From a virus (taxonomy: Duplodnaviria > Caudoviricetes), in IMG/VR virus record IMGVR_UViG_3300022555_000004: a DNA stretch of 64,000 nucleotides; one strand, given 5' to 3'. The notes under the pieces were generated by a model, which was not told where the DNA came from, ran no database searches, and saw only the letters and a list, made by a program, of their open reading frames with translations. The position numbers were made by a program, and so were the translations under genes. Shown piece by piece: positions 30,365 to 57,258 of this stretch. Positions within the stretch are counted from its first letter, which is position 1; each line of letters starts with the position of its first letter.

Positions 30365-30438
30365 TGGTGCAACCGGCGGGAGTCGAACCCGCCTTTACTG
30401 GTTAAAGCCAGTTACTAAACCAGATCAGTTACGGCTGC
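30365..30438 (-). tRNA. tRNA-Lys (TTT)-like with 6-nt anticodon loop (possible 1-nt deletion error)
   Basis: ACUGG-CUUUAA-CCAGU; other arms canonical; CCA. Confidence 0.7.
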
Positions 30439-37346: not shown

Positions 37347-38546
37347 TTATTCAACCTCAACTAAATTACAACGATTTATAACCGTTTGTTTCAACCCTTT
37401 GTATTCAGTATGTTTTGTTACTGTGGCTTTTCCAGTATAATGTCCGTCCACTTCTAAATTTACACTTTTAGTAAACCAAACAGCCACATTATCATTAATT
37501 GTTTTAAACATATAACAATTGGATGTTCCATATTGACTATCAAAAACTCGTTTGCTAATCAAAACCATATCAACATCAATACGTTCACCGATGTTTCCAA
37601 AATGATTAGAAATAGTTTTATCTTCGACTTTCTTCTTATTCAAATTCATAAAATAAACACCTACAATAGAGGCCGCCGTTGTTGCTGTTTTATATGTGAT
37701 ATACTCACGAGCAATAAGGCCTTTGATGTTTCTGATATAATCGGAAGTATTTTCTAATCCATTGACCCATTCAATAACGTGTTTATACGTTTTATCAACA
37801 CCATCACTTGCGGCTGTGTTTAATTCATCTTGCCAATACTTTTTATTATATTCAATGCCCCATACAATATCACCAGTTGCTGATAAATAATTATGGTCAA
37901 CATTCTCTCTGTTTTCTTCGGCATCTTTTCTTACCATTTTAGCAGAAATATATCCGTGTTTCTGAACACAGGCAATGGTTCGTTTCAAAAACATTTCAAT
38001 GTTTTGAACTTCAACGCCTCGTTTATACATTTTTCCATGTTCTTTATCCATCATATCATTCAATGTGTTGAATAATGTAGCATGGGACAATAACAGACTG
38101 GCATCAAATCCAAGATATGCCGTCAAACAAGTGCTTCCCACCTGATGGATTTCTTTTGTATCTGCTCTATAAACCAAATATGTATATTTACGATACCTGT
38201 CTGTATTGCAATGTTCGCAATAGGTGTCACTGTTCCAATACTGTTCAGGTATTTCAACATCATATATTTTTTTCATTATAATATTACCGTTTTTTGAATG
38301 TTCGGTAATCGCTAAGAAAGACCATCCATTCAAGGATACAACCGGATTGATAACATCAATATCATTGACTTCAACCATTTTATGAACATCAACATCATCG
38401 TCATTTTTGAAAATAATATCCTTCTGATATGACGGTGAAATCATGTAATCAATACGAATACCATCCATGCCGAGAATACGATTGTTCAATTCCTCTAGCT
38501 TTTTGGTAATTGTCTTTAATTTATAAGTCGGTATTGTATATTTCAT
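37347..38546 (-). CDS. Conserved phage hypothetical protein (CEHC, QVGSTCL; C-terminal OB-like)
   Basis: 399-aa ORF with own sigma70 promoter. Confidence 0.8.
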   Translation of the reverse strand: MKYTIPTYKLKTITKKLEELNNRILGMDGIRIDYMISPSYQKDIIFKNDDDVDVHKMVEVNDIDVINPVVSLNGWSFLAITEHSKNGNIIMKKIYDVEIPEQYWNSDTYCEHCNTDRYRKYTYLVYRADTKEIHQVGSTCLTAYLGFDASLLLSHATLFNTLNDMMDKEHGKMYKRGVEVQNIEMFLKRTIACVQKHGYISAKMVRKDAEENRENVDHNYLSATGDIVWGIEYNKKYWQDELNTAASDGVDKTYKHVIEWVNGLENTSDYIRNIKGLIAREYITYKTATTAASIVGVYFMNLNKKKVEDKTISNHFGNIGERIDVDMVLISKRVFDSQYGTSNCYMFKTINDNVAVWFTKSVNLEVDGHYTGKATVTKHTEYKGLKQTVINRCNLVEVE

Positions 38547-38963
38547 AATTTTATTGCCTTTCTTATTCTTTATATAACCGATTATACACTAATATAAAGG
38601 AAAAGTCAAGGTATTTTTGTATGTCAGTGGTGGCAGGGGATTGCCGGCGGGTTCCAGAGGATTGAATTTTACGCAAGAAAAAGGTTCAAGAAGTCTTATT
38701 ACCATCATTCTATTTATCAACACTCTGGTTGCCCAATCTGTTGGGAAATAGTTTTAGGGTTTATCGCTTTTGAACCTTATCTTGTTACAATCTAATTAAG
38801 TATCATCCTATAATTTATCTAATATAATTTACTTCTAGTCACTTCATTTCATCACCTGTTCCTTTACGTCTAAAGTTAAAAGTTTAAAACAAAAAATGGT
38901 TCAATATGGTAAACCGAACAGGATAAGAGTCATGGCCAATGAACGAGATATCCTTTTGATGTT

Positions 38964-39395
38964 GGAATTATAACCATTTGAACCGCGTCAGCCCTGATAG
39001 GAATTATGACCTGTTTGACAGGAATTATAACCGTGGCCAACATTTTTTTTGATTGATATATTATGGAATGAAAGAACATGTGGTATATGGTATCATTCCA
39101 AATATCAACCAATCATATCGTTGATTGAAGTCGGTTCTTTGTACCACCAAAAAACGTCCCTTATCAACAGATAAGTAAAGTAGGACTTACACCCAGCTGC
39201 CAATGGACTTATGCGGAATTACTGCCTGGTAGGACTTACCACCCTACGCCAATGGTCTTATTGAAGTCTGATCGCTAAACGTTGAATGGTATTTTCCCCG
39301 TTCAGGCTTATTGCCTCACGCCTTGGACTTACAAAGGATTTATAGCCTCATAGGACTTATAACCCACCGCCATCAAGGACTTACGTGGGAGTTTA
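38964..39395. repeat. Array of about 13 direct GG(A/T)(C/A/T)TTA-type motifs in non-coding DNA
   Basis: GGACTTA at 39183, 39205, 39232, 39325, 39353, 39377; GGAATTA at 38964, 39000, 39021, 39215; variants at 39254, 39305, 39336. Confidence 0.85.
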
Positions 39396-39866
39396 TCGCC
39401 TAAGTTGGAAACCAATAAAGTTGTGGTTCATTGGAAGGATCATTTAGCCTACCAACCGTTCCGCGGATTTCATAGTTAGTATCAATTACATATTTTTTCC
39501 TGTAATTGTAGGGTATTCAGCTTATTTCCCCTAGAAGGAATTGACCTTCACTATATGTCCACATACTTTTTGTTTCCGAGATAGGATAACATGGGCAGTT
39601 ACGCCCAATAACACCTATCGTTTTGATTGATAATGGGAATCGAACCCATATAAACGATGTAGTATCGTTTGTTTGACCATATTAAACTACATCAATCAGT
39701 TTACTGATACTTGGGTGTTGCACCCGCAACGTATATCTACGCGTCACTGCGACTTATCAGTATTGTATGGTTGGGGTGCTGGATGTTTGCGATCCAGATC
39801 CTGACTGTTTTTTTGAGAGGAATTGCGCCTCTATTGTAGGATAACTATTAATTTTTCCCAACTCAT
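39145..39866 (-). ncRNA. Candidate ~720-nt structured ncRNA with serial T-loop hairpins
   Basis: TTGACA-17-TATACT promoter at 39872-39900; at least 5 T-loop-like hairpins; terminator-like CUUAUC-UGUU-GAUAAG...U6 near 39150; no ORF. Confidence 0.55.
39625..39696 (-). tRNA. Degenerate tRNA-like module with CUA at the anticodon position
   Basis: AUUGAUG/UAUCAAU acceptor, GUUU/AAAC D stem, AACGA-UACUACA-UCGUU, UUCGAUU T loop; A33, C37, no CCA. Confidence 0.5.
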
Positions 39867-39929
39867 AATTCAGTATAACAAACTTTGATATGTTTGTCAA
39901 CTATTTTAATTTTTTAAATCTAATTTTTA

Positions 39930-40117
39930 TTTGTGGTAGGGATCAACCCATTTTCGTGAATATTACCAAAATAATTGTTAGACTCAATTCCCTGAGGCTT
40001 TTGGAGAACCAATCTTTATAGGTAACTGACGTATCGTGTTGACTATCGTAACTGACCGTCTGATGTGGTTCCCTCACTCATTAAATACATTATAACACAC
40101 TAAAATCAATATGTCAA
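39930..40117 (-). ncRNA. Short non-coding transcript with sigma70 promoter (40089-40117)
   Basis: TTGACA-17-TATAAT; first 24 nt identical to 1661-1684; twin TCAGTTAC; ends GGGUUGAUCCC-UACCA. Confidence 0.45.
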
Positions 40118-40128
40118 TGATTATTTTT

Positions 40129-40335
40129 TTAATATTTTAAACTCTTGGATATATCATCGGGATTTTCTTTTCCTATGATATCCAATACATTTTTATATGC
40201 TTCAATACTTCTCACGGCATGAAATATAATAGCGGATACTTTAGCCCCGTCTTTACATGCCTGATAGAACAACGCACCTTCCCTTGTTGCTTCTCCGTAT
40301 TTTCTTTTTATCTCCATTTTCTTGATTGTTTCCAT
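40129..40335 (-). CDS. Hypothetical protein
   Basis: GGAG RBS. Confidence 0.65.
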   Translation of the reverse strand: METIKKMEIKRKYGEATREGALFYQACKDGAKVSAIIFHAVRSIEAYKNVLDIIGKENPDDISKSLKY

Positions 40336-47373: not shown

Positions 47374-47441
47374 TTTCCTTGACAATTCAATAAAAATGGT
47401 GTATAATAGGTTTATAATTGAATAAGAAAGGAAATGGAAAA

Positions 47442-47885
47442 ATGACGGATAACATTTTTAATGTGTTATTTCTTGATTTTGACGGTGTTCTCAATAGGTA
47501 TGGTCATTTAAAGAGTTGTGGGCTTTTATCGAAAAATTGTATTTCAAAATTAAATACGATTGTGGAGCAAACAGAAAAGTTAAGGATTGTAATTTCAAGT
47601 TGTTGGAGGATGGGTCGTTCAGTTGAAGTGTTACGACATATCTTGAAAAATGGTGGATTTAAGTATTCAAATTTTATTATTGATACTACGTTGTTTGGTG
47701 TTGAACTGAGCACAAGGGGTGATGAAATTAAGGAATGGCTTAGTCGAAATAATCGTGTAAATAAATTTGTTATTATTGATGATAATTCTGATATGGCACC
47801 TTATATGGATCGATTGGTTCAAACCAATGGTAAAATGGGAATTACAGATAATGATGTAAATGAAGTTGTAAATTTGTTCAAATAG
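47442..47885 (+). CDS. HAD phosphatase, Swiss-Army-knife RNA-repair-like family
   Basis: LFLDFDGVLN, IVISS.WR, RGDEI.EWL, FVIIDD. Confidence 0.85.
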   Translation: MTDNIFNVLFLDFDGVLNRYGHLKSCGLLSKNCISKLNTIVEQTEKLRIVISSCWRMGRSVEVLRHILKNGGFKYSNFIIDTTLFGVELSTRGDEIKEWLSRNNRVNKFVIIDDNSDMAPYMDRLVQTNGKMGITDNDVNEVVNLFK

Positions 47886-53955: not shown

Positions 53956-56900
53956 ATGAATAAAGGAATAGAAAATTCACAATTGAGTGAAATGGCAAAA
54001 AGAATATTTTTGGATTTGTATAGTTTCAGTGATGAAACTATTGACGATACATTCAAACGGGTTTCAAAAGAATTTGGTAACGATGATGATGCTAAATTAG
54101 CATATGACTTAATGAAGAAAAATATATGGCGTCCATCAACACCGATATTTTTTAATTCGGGGTCAACGAAAAAGATTTTTTCGGCATGTTGGGTGGTAAA
54201 CCTTGATGATAGTATGGATAGTATATATGATGTAGCAAATGTTGCAAGAAAAATCTTTCAGAGCGGTGCTGGCATTGGTATTCCTATTGGCAAGTTGCGT
54301 GAAAAGGAAGCTAATATATATGAAGGTCAGGAGAAAACTGATAATGTTCCCAGCGGACGTTCAAGCGGCCCAATATCATTTATGACATTATTTGATGCTG
54401 TTGGGGCAACAACAAAATCTGGTGGTAGAGCAAGACGAGCAGCTATTATGTGTGCTATGCCCATAAACCATCCTGATATTATGGAATTTATCGAATGTAA
54501 AAGTGTTGATGGTGTGTTGTCAAATATGAATATATCTGTATCTGTTACAGATGACTTTATGCAAGCATTCAAAGATAATATACCATATTCTTTGATATCA
54601 CCCGCCAATGGCCCTGTAAAGGAAATAAATGCTAGAGTTATTTGGGATAAGATTGTTGATATGGCACACAAGACTGCCGACCCTGGCGTTTTGTTTATTG
54701 ATACTATCAACAAATTCAATCCTCTGAAAAAAATATTGAAAATTGATTGCACAAATCCTTCGTTGAGGGCAGGAACAAAGGTTATTACTGATGGTGGTAT
54801 ATATCCGATAGAACAATTAGAAAACAAAAAATTTCTTGTTATAAATCAAAAGGGTGAATATTCACCAGCAAAATGCTTTTTATCAGGAAAAGAGAAAGAA
54901 TTGTTTGAAATAACATTAATGGGAGGTAAAAAGTATTATTCAACTGCCGAACATAAATGGCCAGTGTTGAATAACAACATATATGAAAAAAGACAGACAA
55001 CCGACCTCAAATCAGGCGATTACCTACCTATTGTAAGAATGAATTCTCTTGGATATGGTGTGAAGGGCAATTATGATGATGGTTTCGTTATTGGATGGAA
55101 TCTAGGAGATGGATGGATAACAGATAGAAAGGATAATGGTAAACGTCAGTATGGGTTTATATTTAGTAATGAAGATATTGAAAATGGAATATATGATAGG
55201 GTGATGAAAAAAATAACATCAATAACAAATAAAGTATATAATCCTTCAAAGATAGATGGTTGCATTGAATTTAATACAACAAATAATGATTTAGATACTT
55301 TCTTTAGGTCGTATGGTGTTGATAAAAAATCAACTGGGATGCCTTCTAGTGTATGGACAACAGCATCAGAGGAATTTAGAAAAGGGTTGATTGACGGTTT
55401 ATTTTCATCAGATGGTTATGTCGATAAATCTGGAAGCCGATGTGTTTTTTGCAGTAGTAATTATAAATTAGCATCAGATGTTTCAGAAATATTAGGATTT
55501 TATGGAATCAAAACAAGATTAACAGAGTCAACATCATCTAATATATCGTTTCCAAATGGAAAATTATATGGCAGAGCTTATACTAGATATTTCGTACAAT
55601 TGTTCACATCATCATTGATGCATTTTAGAGACATATTTACTCTTTCAAATAATAGGAAAAATGAGTTGATGTGGATGAAAAAATCATTAAATAAAGGTGG
55701 AATGGTATATGATAATATTAAAATAAAGAGTATAACCAAAACAGATATAAAAGAAGATGTGTGGGATATTAGTGTTTTTGATGATACACATACTTTTAAA
55801 CTTTCTCATGTGATCACAGGAAATTGCGGCGAACAGCCTTTGATTCCATATACATCTTGTAATTTGAGTTCAATCAATTTACATAGATTTTGTAGTAATG
55901 ATGGATATAATTTTGATGGACTATATAAAACAGCATACAATGTTACAAGATTGATGGATAATCTTATTGATAATATGGAATTTCCAGATGAACGGTTCAA
56001 AATTAATGTATTGAAGTATCGTCCAATAGGTGTTGGTATTATGGGGTTGGCGGACACTTTATATGAAATGGGTTTGCCATATGATGATAAAGAAGGACAG
56101 ATATTTGCTGAAAAATGTATGAAGATTGTTACTACAGCCAGCTTAGAGGCTAGTTCTGATATAGCAAAGGAAAAAGGAACATTTACTGATTATAAACTTG
56201 TAGAAGATGATGTTTTAGAAATTGTATCTTCTTTTATTGATGACCCATCAGTATTAGAAAAAATTAAAAAATATGGTTTGAGAAATTGTCAACACACAAC
56301 GGTGGCGCCAACCGGAAGTATTGCTTTATCATGTGATTGTTCATATGGTATGGAACCGAGTTTTGGTTTAGTATTTCAAAAAAGATTGGTTGAATCTGGT
56401 GATACATATATTTTAGTCAATCCAATATTCAAAAAGAAGTATGAAAACGAATCATGGTATACACCTGAAATGATTGAGAAAATCGTTCAAAACGGAGGGT
56501 CATTGAAGGGTATTAGAGGAATACCAAAAGAAGTACGTGAAGTATTTGTTGTTGCTCATGATATTAAAGCTAAGGATAGAATTGATATGCAGTCTGTATT
56601 ACAAAAACACGTATCGACTGCCATTAGTAGCACGACAAATTTACCATCCACAACAACAAGGGATGAAATATCTGAAATATATAGATATGCTTATCAAAAA
56701 GGACTGAAAGGTGTTACAATTTATAGGGATGGTTCTAAAAAATTGCAACCCATTTCTTTTTCAAATAAAGAGAAAGTAGAGGTTGTTCCTAATTTTAAAC
56801 GACCTACAAAATTATTAGCAGTTAGACATGAAGTTGAAACCGGCAATGGTAAAATGTATATCATCGTATCAACACATGATGGCAAACCTGTAGAAGTTTT

Positions 56901-57258
56901 TCTTTCAATGGGTAAATCTGGACAATTATTCAATAGTTTTTGTGAGGGTCTTGGAAGAACCGTATCCATTGCGTTACAACACGGAACGCCGGTAGCGGCA
57001 ATCATCAAAACCCTTGAAGGAATAAATTCAGACCGTCCTAATTGGTTCAGGTTTGAGGAAACAGATAAAAAGCCAACACAAATATTGTCGATTCCAGATG
57101 CTATAGCAAAATTATTGGAACGATATTACCTGAATGATAATAAAATCATCAATGTTGAATCAGAAGGTGAATTATGTCTAAAATGTGGTAGATATGCTGT
57201 TATACCTTTTGAAGGATGCCATATATGCACATCATGTAATGATAGTCGGTGCGGATAA
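53956..57258 (+). CDS. nrdJ: Class II (adenosylcobalamin) ribonucleotide reductase with intein and C-terminal TSCPD/Zn-ribbon
   Basis: SAC, GAG.G, RRAA, HPDI.EFI.CK, NISV, TNP/CGEQPL, APTG, KGVTIYRDGS. Confidence 0.93.
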   Translation: MNKGIENSQLSEMAKRIFLDLYSFSDETIDDTFKRVSKEFGNDDDAKLAYDLMKKNIWRPSTPIFFNSGSTKKIFSACWVVNLDDSMDSIYDVANVARKIFQSGAGIGIPIGKLREKEANIYEGQEKTDNVPSGRSSGPISFMTLFDAVGATTKSGGRARRAAIMCAMPINHPDIMEFIECKSVDGVLSNMNISVSVTDDFMQAFKDNIPYSLISPANGPVKEINARVIWDKIVDMAHKTADPGVLFIDTINKFNPLKKILKIDCTNPSLRAGTKVITDGGIYPIEQLENKKFLVINQKGEYSPAKCFLSGKEKELFEITLMGGKKYYSTAEHKWPVLNNNIYEKRQTTDLKSGDYLPIVRMNSLGYGVKGNYDDGFVIGWNLGDGWITDRKDNGKRQYGFIFSNEDIENGIYDRVMKKITSITNKVYNPSKIDGCIEFNTTNNDLDTFFRSYGVDKKSTGMPSSVWTTASEEFRKGLIDGLFSSDGYVDKSGSRCVFCSSNYKLASDVSEILGFYGIKTRLTESTSSNISFPNGKLYGRAYTRYFVQLFTSSLMHFRDIFTLSNNRKNELMWMKKSLNKGGMVYDNIKIKSITKTDIKEDVWDISVFDDTHTFKLSHVITGNCGEQPLIPYTSCNLSSINLHRFCSNDGYNFDGLYKTAYNVTRLMDNLIDNMEFPDERFKINVLKYRPIGVGIMGLADTLYEMGLPYDDKEGQIFAEKCMKIVTTASLEASSDIAKEKGTFTDYKLVEDDVLEIVSSFIDDPSVLEKIKKYGLRNCQHTTVAPTGSIALSCDCSYGMEPSFGLVFQKRLVESGDTYILVNPIFKKKYENESWYTPEMIEKIVQNGGSLKGIRGIPKEVREVFVVAHDIKAKDRIDMQSVLQKHVSTAISSTTNLPSTTTRDEISEIYRYAYQKGLKGVTIYRDGSKKLQPISFSNKEKVEVVPNFKRPTKLLAVRHEVETGNGKMYIIVSTHDGKPVEVFLSMGKSGQLFNSFCEGLGRTVSIALQHGTPVAAIIKTLEGINSDRPNWFRFEETDKKPTQILSIPDAIAKLLERYYLNDNKIINVESEGELCLKCGRYAVIPFEGCHICTSCNDSRCG
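54760..55824 (+). mobile_element. 355-aa intein with LAGLIDADG endonuclease
   Basis: Interrupts TNP|CGEQ; begins SLRAGTKV, has TAEHKW block B, GWNLGDG and GLFSSDG motifs; ends ITGN. Confidence 0.92.

Follow-up and report, generated by a model that had tools for sequence, protein, structure and literature searches.

The DNA analyzed here is a stretch of 64,000 nucleotides (nt) from IMG/VR record IMGVR_UViG_3300022555_000004, hereafter the window, and belongs to an uncultured, freshwater T4-like phage that encodes a clamp loader, a ribonucleotide reductase with an intein, and 22 transfer RNA (tRNA) genes within the window. The stretch is present in DNA runs from lake and freshwater metagenomes. 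All of the tRNA genes, together with the genes up to about 42.8 kilobases (kb), are on the minus strand, and at that point both the direction of transcription and the GC skew switch. Within this block lies a 1.58-kb gap (38547-40128) without credible open reading frames (ORFs), with small early genes at one border and the gene for a 399-amino-acid protein at the other, and in this gap is an array of short repeats. Our best reading of the sequence is that the repeats are part of a minus-strand noncoding RNA (ncRNA) gene in the early, tRNA-rich region of the phage genome, and that the locus represents a new ncRNA family, so far within one clade of uncultured T4-like freshwater phages.

An initial annotation of this DNA described the repeats as an array of about 13 GGA(C/A)UUA motifs at irregular spacing of 10-50 nt with no reading frame, and read it as a plus-strand sponge RNA of the CsrB/RsmY/RsmZ type, with origin iterons or a minus-strand transcript as alternatives. 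We find ten plus-strand copies of GGAMTTA (M is A or C) in 38964-39383, compared with 13 on both strands in the remaining window, and all six GGACTTA copies of the window are within 39183-39383. At the rate of the remaining window, 0.044 GGAMTTA copies are expected per 432 nt, and the probability of finding at least ten is about 7e-21. Because the count is so far beyond the background rate, we consider the array to be real. Three degenerate copies (GGTCTTA at 39254, GGCTTAT at 39305, and GGATTTA at 39336) bring the total to about 13, as annotated, although the conserved unit turns out to be longer and to lie on the minus strand; the number of motif copies in the window is about 13-16. The description of the layout is borne out: the distances between array copies are 24, 17, 11, 21, 50, 22, 17, 10, 22, 162, 21, and 36 nt, Tandem Repeats Finder (TRF) detects no tandem period in the array, and 39183-39395 contains no ORF of at least 40 amino acids on either strand. 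The array has a GC content of 0.38-0.42 and a skew near zero, compared with a GC content of 0.33 and a skew of -0.2 to -0.3 in its flanks. A blastn comparison of the gap with 50,697 phage records gave no match.

Homologs of the 399-amino-acid protein in metagenome assemblies (56-68% identity) lead to relatives of the locus, here given L numbers. The gap upstream of the gene is retained in relatives with 59-68% protein identity, and L001-L019, with the exception of L011, have a gene-free gap of 0.7-1.4 kb at this position. In the 1.5 kb upstream of the gene, a loose form of the motif occurs on the gene strand 20 times in L017, 14-15 times in L018 and L019, and 13 times in L010, and the array regions hold 13 copies in the window, 4 in L014 (an incomplete locus), and 5-7 in the L003/L009/L016, L004/L012/L015, and L001 groups. 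Across the family, copy number runs from about 5 to about 20. L007 showed no array, and around homologs of 40% identity or less there is no enrichment of the loose motif. When the window is compared with the gaps of its relatives by blastn, the promoters and the 3' module align and little else does; MAFFT alignments across whole gaps were uninformative. The conserved unit in a profile of 81 family copies is the 12-mer GGYNRUAAKUCC on the minus strand. Its first and second G are kept in 56 and 67 of the 81 copies and its second C in 63, all of these being positions outside the search pattern. The minus-strand U opposite the A of GGA is found in 51 copies (63%), and the conservation of the family is centered on UAA and the flanking GG and CC rather than on GGA, which argues against a CsrA-type sponge.

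A covariance model of linker-hairpin-linker units, R1, was built from other phages only (alignment A4) and run with filters off over both strands of the 64 kb. It gives three significant matches in the window, all on the minus strand (39336-39364, E = 1.7e-5; 39215-39243, E = 3.3e-5; 39000-39032, E = 1.7e-4), and four further weak matches in the array (for example, 39377-39400, 39304-39334, and 39183-39212), and, beyond the three significant ones, no match has an E value below 0.1 on either strand. Over 36 loci, 27 of 27 R1 matches are on the gene strand and fall exclusively in array-bearing loci; L007, L011, and the contexts of distant homologs have no match. A model of other phages' units therefore detects the window array, and on the gene strand only. 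In position, orientation, and a closing U-tailed stem with two motif copies within it, the window array agrees with L017, L019, and L001. A scan of the whole window at Rfam gathering thresholds returned tRNAs alone, and Rfam contains no such RNA family. In the literature on phage repeat RNAs or sponges we found no description of a GGYNRUAAKUCC array family. A pattern scan of IMG/VR (78 loci) yielded coding tandem repeats and no comparable arrays, and the matches listed from a scan of GTDB (one genome per prokaryote species) are coding repeats or a 22-nt hairpin repeat from PVC-group bacteria that is unrelated to the array, so that at this stringency no bacterial counterpart of the array is among them.

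Sequence signals point to the minus strand as the one from which the array is probably transcribed. This strand carries near-consensus promoters (12/12, 11/12, and 11/12) and U-tailed stems, in keeping with the minus-strand transcript that had been offered as an alternative to the sponge. On the plus strand the best promoter match is 9/12, none reaches 10/12, and the array contains no terminator; these findings, and the position of the region within a minus-strand transcription block, count against a plus-strand sponge. Two promoter-like sites, P1 and P2, precede the RNA (Table 1), and from P2 to the array there is no further minus-strand promoter site of at least 10/12. A tRNA gene with a CUA anticodon sits in this interval, upstream of the array and on the same strand. 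The T4 stable RNAs species 1 and 2 (rnaC and rnaD), which belong to the tRNA cluster of that phage, are ncRNAs of unassigned function that are co-transcribed with tRNAs, each a single RNA of about 120-140 nt. The array ncRNA would be like them in its co-transcription with a phage tRNA and unlike them in its repeat array, which they lack.

A strong fold is predicted at the end of the presumed transcript. Here a 9-bp stem (38778-38681) closes a 98-nt structure that contains two motif-like copies (38757-38767 and 38693-38703) and an inner hairpin, with a minimum free energy (MFE) of -34 kcal/mol compared with -17.8 +/- 3.1 for shuffled sequences (z = -5.2). L017 (2820-2902), L019 (2825-2897), and L001 (4637-4691) likewise have terminator stems that enclose two motif copies and are followed by a U-run on the gene strand, and in these four lineages the stems are 9-11 bp long and different in sequence in each. 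Other relatives have classical stem-plus-U terminators at the end of the gap, again on the gene strand. A second U-tailed stem of the window (39149-39186) is listed only as a candidate terminator because its fold is no more stable than that of shuffles (z = -0.06). For five close relatives, alifold gives -140.5 with a favorable covariation term on the gene strand and -136.6 with an unfavorable one on the opposite strand, so that the predicted consensus folds slightly prefer the gene strand.

Two models of pairing around the motif were compared by permutation (5000 permutations): in one, the segment between neighboring copies forms a hairpin, and in the other, each copy is a loop closed by its own flanks. 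The inter-copy arms form 2.85 pairs with their true partner compared with 2.14 +/- 0.13 with permuted partners, a value reached in 0 of 5000 permutations. The own-flank model does not rise above permuted flanks, 307 of 5000 of which reach the observed value. Since the inter-copy arms are partner-specific and the own flanks are not, we conclude that the motif is a linker between hairpins and that its GG and CC are helix ends. The permutation test, together with the strict descriptor used below, replaced a search for the best hairpin downstream of each copy and a permissive two-helix descriptor, neither of which was discriminating. In alignment A2 (24 units), 80% of cells are paired, a level reached by 4 of 500 shuffles, and controls slid out of register stay at or below 62%. 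Compensatory changes are present in the module helices of close relatives (CUU/AAG to CUC/GAG and GUGGG/CCCAC to GCGGG/CCCGC).

This design is most plainly seen in L017, where hairpins and 8-nt linkers follow one another in series (for example, CCUC-loop-GAGG and CCACC-loop-GGUGG). In the window, a 5-bp hairpin (CCUGU/ACAGG) lies between the first two copies of sub-array B. A second building block, the two-helix element hpB, is matched once by its strict descriptor on both strands of the window, inside the array, and is present in 3 copies in L017 and 5 in L018 and L019, with differing stem sequences. In L019 it consists of an outer stem, a 5' internal loop with GUAA, an inner hairpin, and a 2-nt 3' loop, and it alternates with mini-hairpins. 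Its outer stems there are CCUCU/GGGGG, CCACC/GGUGG, and CCCU/GGGG, and the inner ones CCAUU/AAUGG, CCUCU/AGAGG, and CCAAU/GUUGG. Upstream of the array, the two end motifs of a central element are predicted in the L004 group to form a long-range helix with compensatory changes.

Table 1. Features of the array locus and its surroundings (window coordinates).
Feature	Coordinates	Strand	Basis or remark
P1, promoter-like site, TTGACA-17-TATAAT with TG extension	40089..40117	minus	12/12 consensus; first of two upstream of the RNA
P2, promoter-like site, TTGACA-17-TATACT with TG extension	39872..39900	minus	11/12 consensus; likely start of tRNA plus array
tRNA, anticodon CUA (amber suppressor type)	39624..39697	minus	ARAGORN; Rfam tRNA, 41.5 bits, E = 5.7e-7
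Central element, GACAUAUAGUGAAGG ... CCUUCCAAUGAAC	39426..39559	minus	both end motifs common to otherwise unalignable relatives L003, L004, and L014
Sub-array A, 11 copies of GGYNRUAAKUCC or close variants with short hairpins between	39183..39400	minus	profile; R1 matches
Two-helix element hpB, CCCAC GUAAGU CC-loop-GG CG GUGGG	39363..39389	minus	strict descriptor
Possible weak internal terminator, interrupted stem GUCC...GGAC then U6	39149..39186	minus	sequence; candidate
Long imperfect hairpin between the sub-arrays	39038..39123	unassigned	inverted repeat I3, 22-nt arms, 73% complementary; in both MFE folds
Sub-array B, three copies (GGUUAUAAUUCC, GGUCAUAAUUCC, GGUUAUAAUUCC)	38964..39036	minus	R1 match 39000-39032
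AT-rich spacer with box GAUGAUACUUAAUUAGA	38790..38900	minus	box common to L014 and L010; GC about 0.33
3' module and terminator, 9-bp stem AAGGUUCAA/UUGAACCUU then U-run	38676..38778	minus	MFE compared with shuffles
Separate promoter of the downstream gene	38581..38609	minus	11/12 consensus; conserved in relatives
Gene for 399-amino-acid protein, phrog_2319, C-terminal OB fold and conserved Cys/His	37347..38546	minus	synteny anchor; positional candidate partner

Because the array offers many identical exposed sites, varies fast in copy number, and stands behind strong early promoters, we tentatively propose that the minus-strand RNA is a multivalent platform for binding a protein of the host or of the phage, a reading we hold to be quite possible though short of probable. 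Transcription would most likely start from the two promoters of the sigma-70 type (40117 and 39900), pass the CUA suppressor tRNA (39697-39624), and continue through the array to end at either the weak hairpin and U6 near 39150 or the strong U-tailed stem (38778-38681). In this RNA, GG would be the last two pairs of the preceding hairpin and CC the first two pairs of the following one, with YNRUAAKU, eight bases with an invariant UAA, as the single-stranded linker. Given that GG and CC would end adjacent hairpins, the RNA is pictured as a chain of short C-G-closed hairpins on identical linkers, which would close with a terminator hairpin bearing two facing motif copies. An RNA-binding protein that recognizes RUAAKU beside a helix end could be held by such a chain, which would then serve as its sponge, decoy, or scaffold.

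Several observations weigh against this proposal. The inter-copy hairpins of the window are mostly 2-3 bp, and with stems this short the window has a looser version of the design. The fold of the whole region is marginal relative to shuffles (z = -1.7 for the minus strand and -1.1 for the plus strand), and the counts of G-U versus A-C in stems, 6 versus 2, favor the minus strand weakly and are too few to decide. Transcription itself, along with where the RNA starts and stops and how abundant it is, is deduced from sequence. The partner is a presumed host or phage protein, and variable copy number is compatible with other functions too. As regards the neighboring 399-amino-acid protein, its link to the array is positional only, because phrog_2319 genes also occur without arrays (L007, L011, and L020-L049) and the motif is not enriched at the translation start region of the gene (p = 0.21).

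A plausible analogy for the way in which the array RNA might act is found in the CsrB-type RNAs. Like CsrB, RsmY, and RsmZ (RF00018, RF00195, RF00166, and relatives), it is an ncRNA of short hairpins in which a motif is repeated and copy number varies. Unlike them, it presents RUAAKU in linkers and on the opposite strand, whereas they present GGA in loops, and it is phage-encoded, fused to a tRNA transcription unit, and without a covariance-model match, so that it is not a member of their families.

A more specific form of the platform proposal, and one that we consider distinctly unlikely, is that of an early decoy RNA, in which the copies of RUAAKU beside a helix end would mimic the target of a host RNA-binding defense or regulatory protein and titrate it. 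The target could be, for instance, a repeat-recognizing CRISPR protein of the processing or backbone kind, or else a toxin endoribonuclease, with copy number driven up and down in an arms race. The ToxI arrays of type III antitoxins, which are exact tandem repeats of 34-36 nt beside a ToxN/AbiQ-type toxin gene, offer one comparison, since ToxI or pseudo-ToxI RNAs of phages are decoys for a host RNA-binding defense protein. The array differs from ToxI in its lack of a TRF period and in that no toxin or defense gene is adjacent (PADLOC, nine neighboring proteins). A second comparison is with the Racr RNA anti-CRISPRs, phage-encoded repeat RNAs that are decoys for a host defense protein (PMC10651486).

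The main rival to the platform is an ornate structural RNA that folds on itself. Here the 12-mer would recur as a junction or a tertiary module, for instance with a UAA linker on either side of a symmetric internal loop, and the RNA would work by way of its own architecture, as has been proposed for RNAs of the ROOL/GOLLD type, instead of titrating a protein. Two copies do face each other within one closed hairpin in the 3' modules of the window, L017, L019, and L001, and also at L003 4340-4382, at L004 4740-4768, and in columns 361-403 of alignment A3, with a compensatory change in the closing helix (L004 4740-4768/A3 columns 361-403). A 5' domain of the RNA, moreover, shows 100% identity between sub-lineages whose identity is otherwise about 88%. 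This reading also has known counterparts in GOLLD and ROOL, large phage and prophage ncRNAs of unproven function that often adjoin tRNA genes, as the array does (PMC5737381, PMC12286853). The array RNA, at about 0.7-1.2 kb, resembles them in size, in its phage origin beside tRNA genes, and in its occurrence in lake metagenomes. It is unlike them in being a variable number of one small module with no fixed ornate fold and in having been found so far in one phage clade, and the GOLLD and ROOL models have no match in the window region (E <= 10) or in six related loci (E <= 1), nor does any other Rfam model for such an RNA. The window also lacks the 5' domain of the L003 and L004 groups. Because copy number (about 5 to 20) and arrangement (serial in L017 and L019, nested elsewhere) differ between relatives, one fixed three-dimensional architecture fits poorly, and we regard this reading as unlikely.

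The 5' domain itself, about 175 nt long, is located at L004 4334-4510, with the same stretch in L005, L012, L013, and L015 (A3 columns 10-183). It is identical but for one base between lineages whose 3' halves are about 88% identical, an unusually strong constraint for noncoding sequence.

In a second alternative the repeats act as DNA, the 12-bp units being iterons that, much like those of plasmids, would bind a phage protein at a replication origin or another DNA site. They are indeed direct repeats of about 12 bp in one orientation beside an AT-rich tract, the spacing in L017 clusters at 21-25 nt, and the adjacent gene encodes a protein with a predicted nucleic-acid-binding OB fold. T4 oriE, moreover, has been described with an early promoter, direct repeats 12 nt long, at even spacing and of unproven role, and repEA/repEB (PMC3016281). 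In both cases the phage is T4-type, the promoter is early and of the sigma-70 type, direct repeats of about 12 nt form a cluster, and small early genes lie downstream. However, the T4 record places the oriE mark within gene 5, in the orientation antisense to the coding sequence; since this is a coding region, oriE is not a comparable noncoding array, and its evenly spaced repeats contrast with array repeats that are irregularly spaced, unphased, and alternate with partner-specific hairpins. Helical phasing is absent at a 10.5-bp period (Rayleigh p = 0.43 in the window and 0.60 in L019, with L017 borderline at 0.058), there is no tandem period, and the cumulative GC-skew minimum is at the strand switch near 42.8 kb, away from the array. 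Partner-specific hairpins between copies, and copies placed in U-tailed terminator stems, would be needless for a site in duplex DNA. An origin, which the initial annotation had also entertained, thus finds little support and we consider it improbable.

A third alternative keeps the minus-strand RNA and takes it as a precursor that a host or phage endoribonuclease cleaves at the linkers into many small hairpin RNAs, beside the processing of tRNA. A transcript shared with a tRNA that needs processing, and AU-rich single-stranded linkers between stable hairpins, which would be typical endonuclease substrates, are consistent with this. The hairpins between the linkers are not conserved in sequence, however, and for this reason the products would have no common function, which makes the reading very unlikely.

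A fourth, for which we see very little probability, is that each 12-mer is a hairpin closed by GG and CC whose 8-nt loop resembles a T-loop, and the array a multivalent mimic of the tRNA elbow. GG-N8-CC is superficially like the GG-UUCGAAU-CC of the tRNA T-arm, the array is in a tRNA-rich transcription unit, and the flanks of some copies could lengthen the closing stem to as much as 5 bp. The permutation result for own flanks (307 of 5000) speaks against such stems. A T-loop requires a reverse-Hoogsteen pair of U at loop position 1 with A at position 5, whereas of the 81 copies 42 have C and 31 have U at the first loop position; the loop has 8 nt instead of 7, and the Rfam tRNA model matches just the true tRNA in the region.

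Finally, a plus-strand sponge of the CsrB/RsmY/RsmZ type that titrates host CsrA or RsmA, once suggested by 10-13 GGA-containing repeats within about 430 nt, is hardly credible: only three or four copies can occupy the small loops in which many had been drawn, the two Gs of GGA are paired (mean probability of being unpaired 0.07 and 0.09 over 10 copies in the plus-strand ensemble), and a cmscan of both strands of 38500-40200 at E <= 10 gave the tRNA, three chance-level matches to unrelated families, and no Csr or Rsm match. We therefore regard it as refuted as far as sequence can tell. What survives of the annotated phage sponge is the general idea of an RNA presenting many copies of a short site; the strand and the CsrA partner were wrong.

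The 399-amino-acid protein is, by its position, the sole nearby candidate for a single-strand binder. Its predicted fold (predicted local distance difference test score, pLDDT, 87.6) has a C-terminal OB fold like the domains of SSB and RPA, and an exact copy of the protein is on record in contigs of up to 229 kb. Homologs in phrog_2319 are found in 440 records of large phages, including Ackermannviridae-, KVP40-, and phiCbK-like phages and jumbo phages, and are unannotated save for one record that names the protein RecT-like. Autoregulation of this gene by way of the motif was considered and dropped on the start-region result given above, and the idea of a RegA-type regulator found no Pfam translational-repressor match among the genes near the clamp loader. 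Searches of the neighboring proteins against Pfam, PHROGs, and PDB sequences gave no functional clue beyond the OB fold, and PADLOC found nothing in nine of them.

Other short stretches of the gap recur in diverged phages. P1 and the transcript start (window 40067-40142, minus strand, AAUGAGUGRGGGAAC...) are 74-90% identical in L003, L007, L009, and L010; this conservation covers the promoter and the first 20 or so transcribed bases and spans phages whose gaps are otherwise unalignable. In L010 a AAUGAGUG box is repeated several times beside tRNA-like pieces. A GC-rich box, GGAACCCGCCGG(C)AA...CCC, is found in the interval from the RNA terminator to the promoter of the 399-amino-acid gene in the window (38630-38655, minus strand) and in two other phages from which it has otherwise diverged (L010 3645-3672 and L007 4795-4822), and could be a binding site for a regulator.

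The pattern scans turned up two further repeats. In metagenome-assembled genomes of Kiritimatiellae, Lentisphaeraceae, and 'Spyradenecus', 4-5 22-nt repeats of the form TAAGTCC-NNN-ACTTATCGGNNA are found on many contigs, often near the contig end (among the matches listed, L132, L136, L150, L151, L157, L159, L160, L163, L173, and others). These repeats are small hairpins that resemble the end of a multi-copy mobile element or a REP-like element and, apart from the searched motif, are unrelated to the phage RNA. On an IMG/VR contig, L106 (7750-7961, minus orientation), a perfect 24-nt tandem repeat, GGCGATAATTCCCACCGGTGCCGC, which contains the 12-mer, directly follows a terminator-like hairpin.

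Elsewhere in the window, ARAGORN reports a tRNA at 30365-30438 on the minus strand whose two-base anticodon ('tt') is undetermined (Rfam tRNA, 50.3 bits). On the plus strand, an intein with a LAGLIDADG domain splits the large subunit of ribonucleotide reductase (53956-57258), and the protein encoded at 47418-47885 has a HAD domain of the kind carried by 'Swiss Army Knife' RNA-repair proteins (PF18143, E = 8e-26), in a phage that carries many tRNAs and a suppressor tRNA.

Phage ncRNAs of known function are very few, and nearly all come from cultured phages. To these the array locus adds an RNA gene of uncultured freshwater T4-like phages that appears to be conserved and strongly promoted, and the 12-mer together with the covariance model provides a handle for finding further members. 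The suppressor tRNA in the same transcription unit adds to evidence elsewhere in the genome for manipulation of translation. If the decoy reading were true, the array RNA would be a new class of RNA-based phage counter-defense that exceeds the single-repeat Racr RNAs in size and repetitiveness. The identity of the partner could reveal a new RNA route by which a phage takes over or disarms its host.

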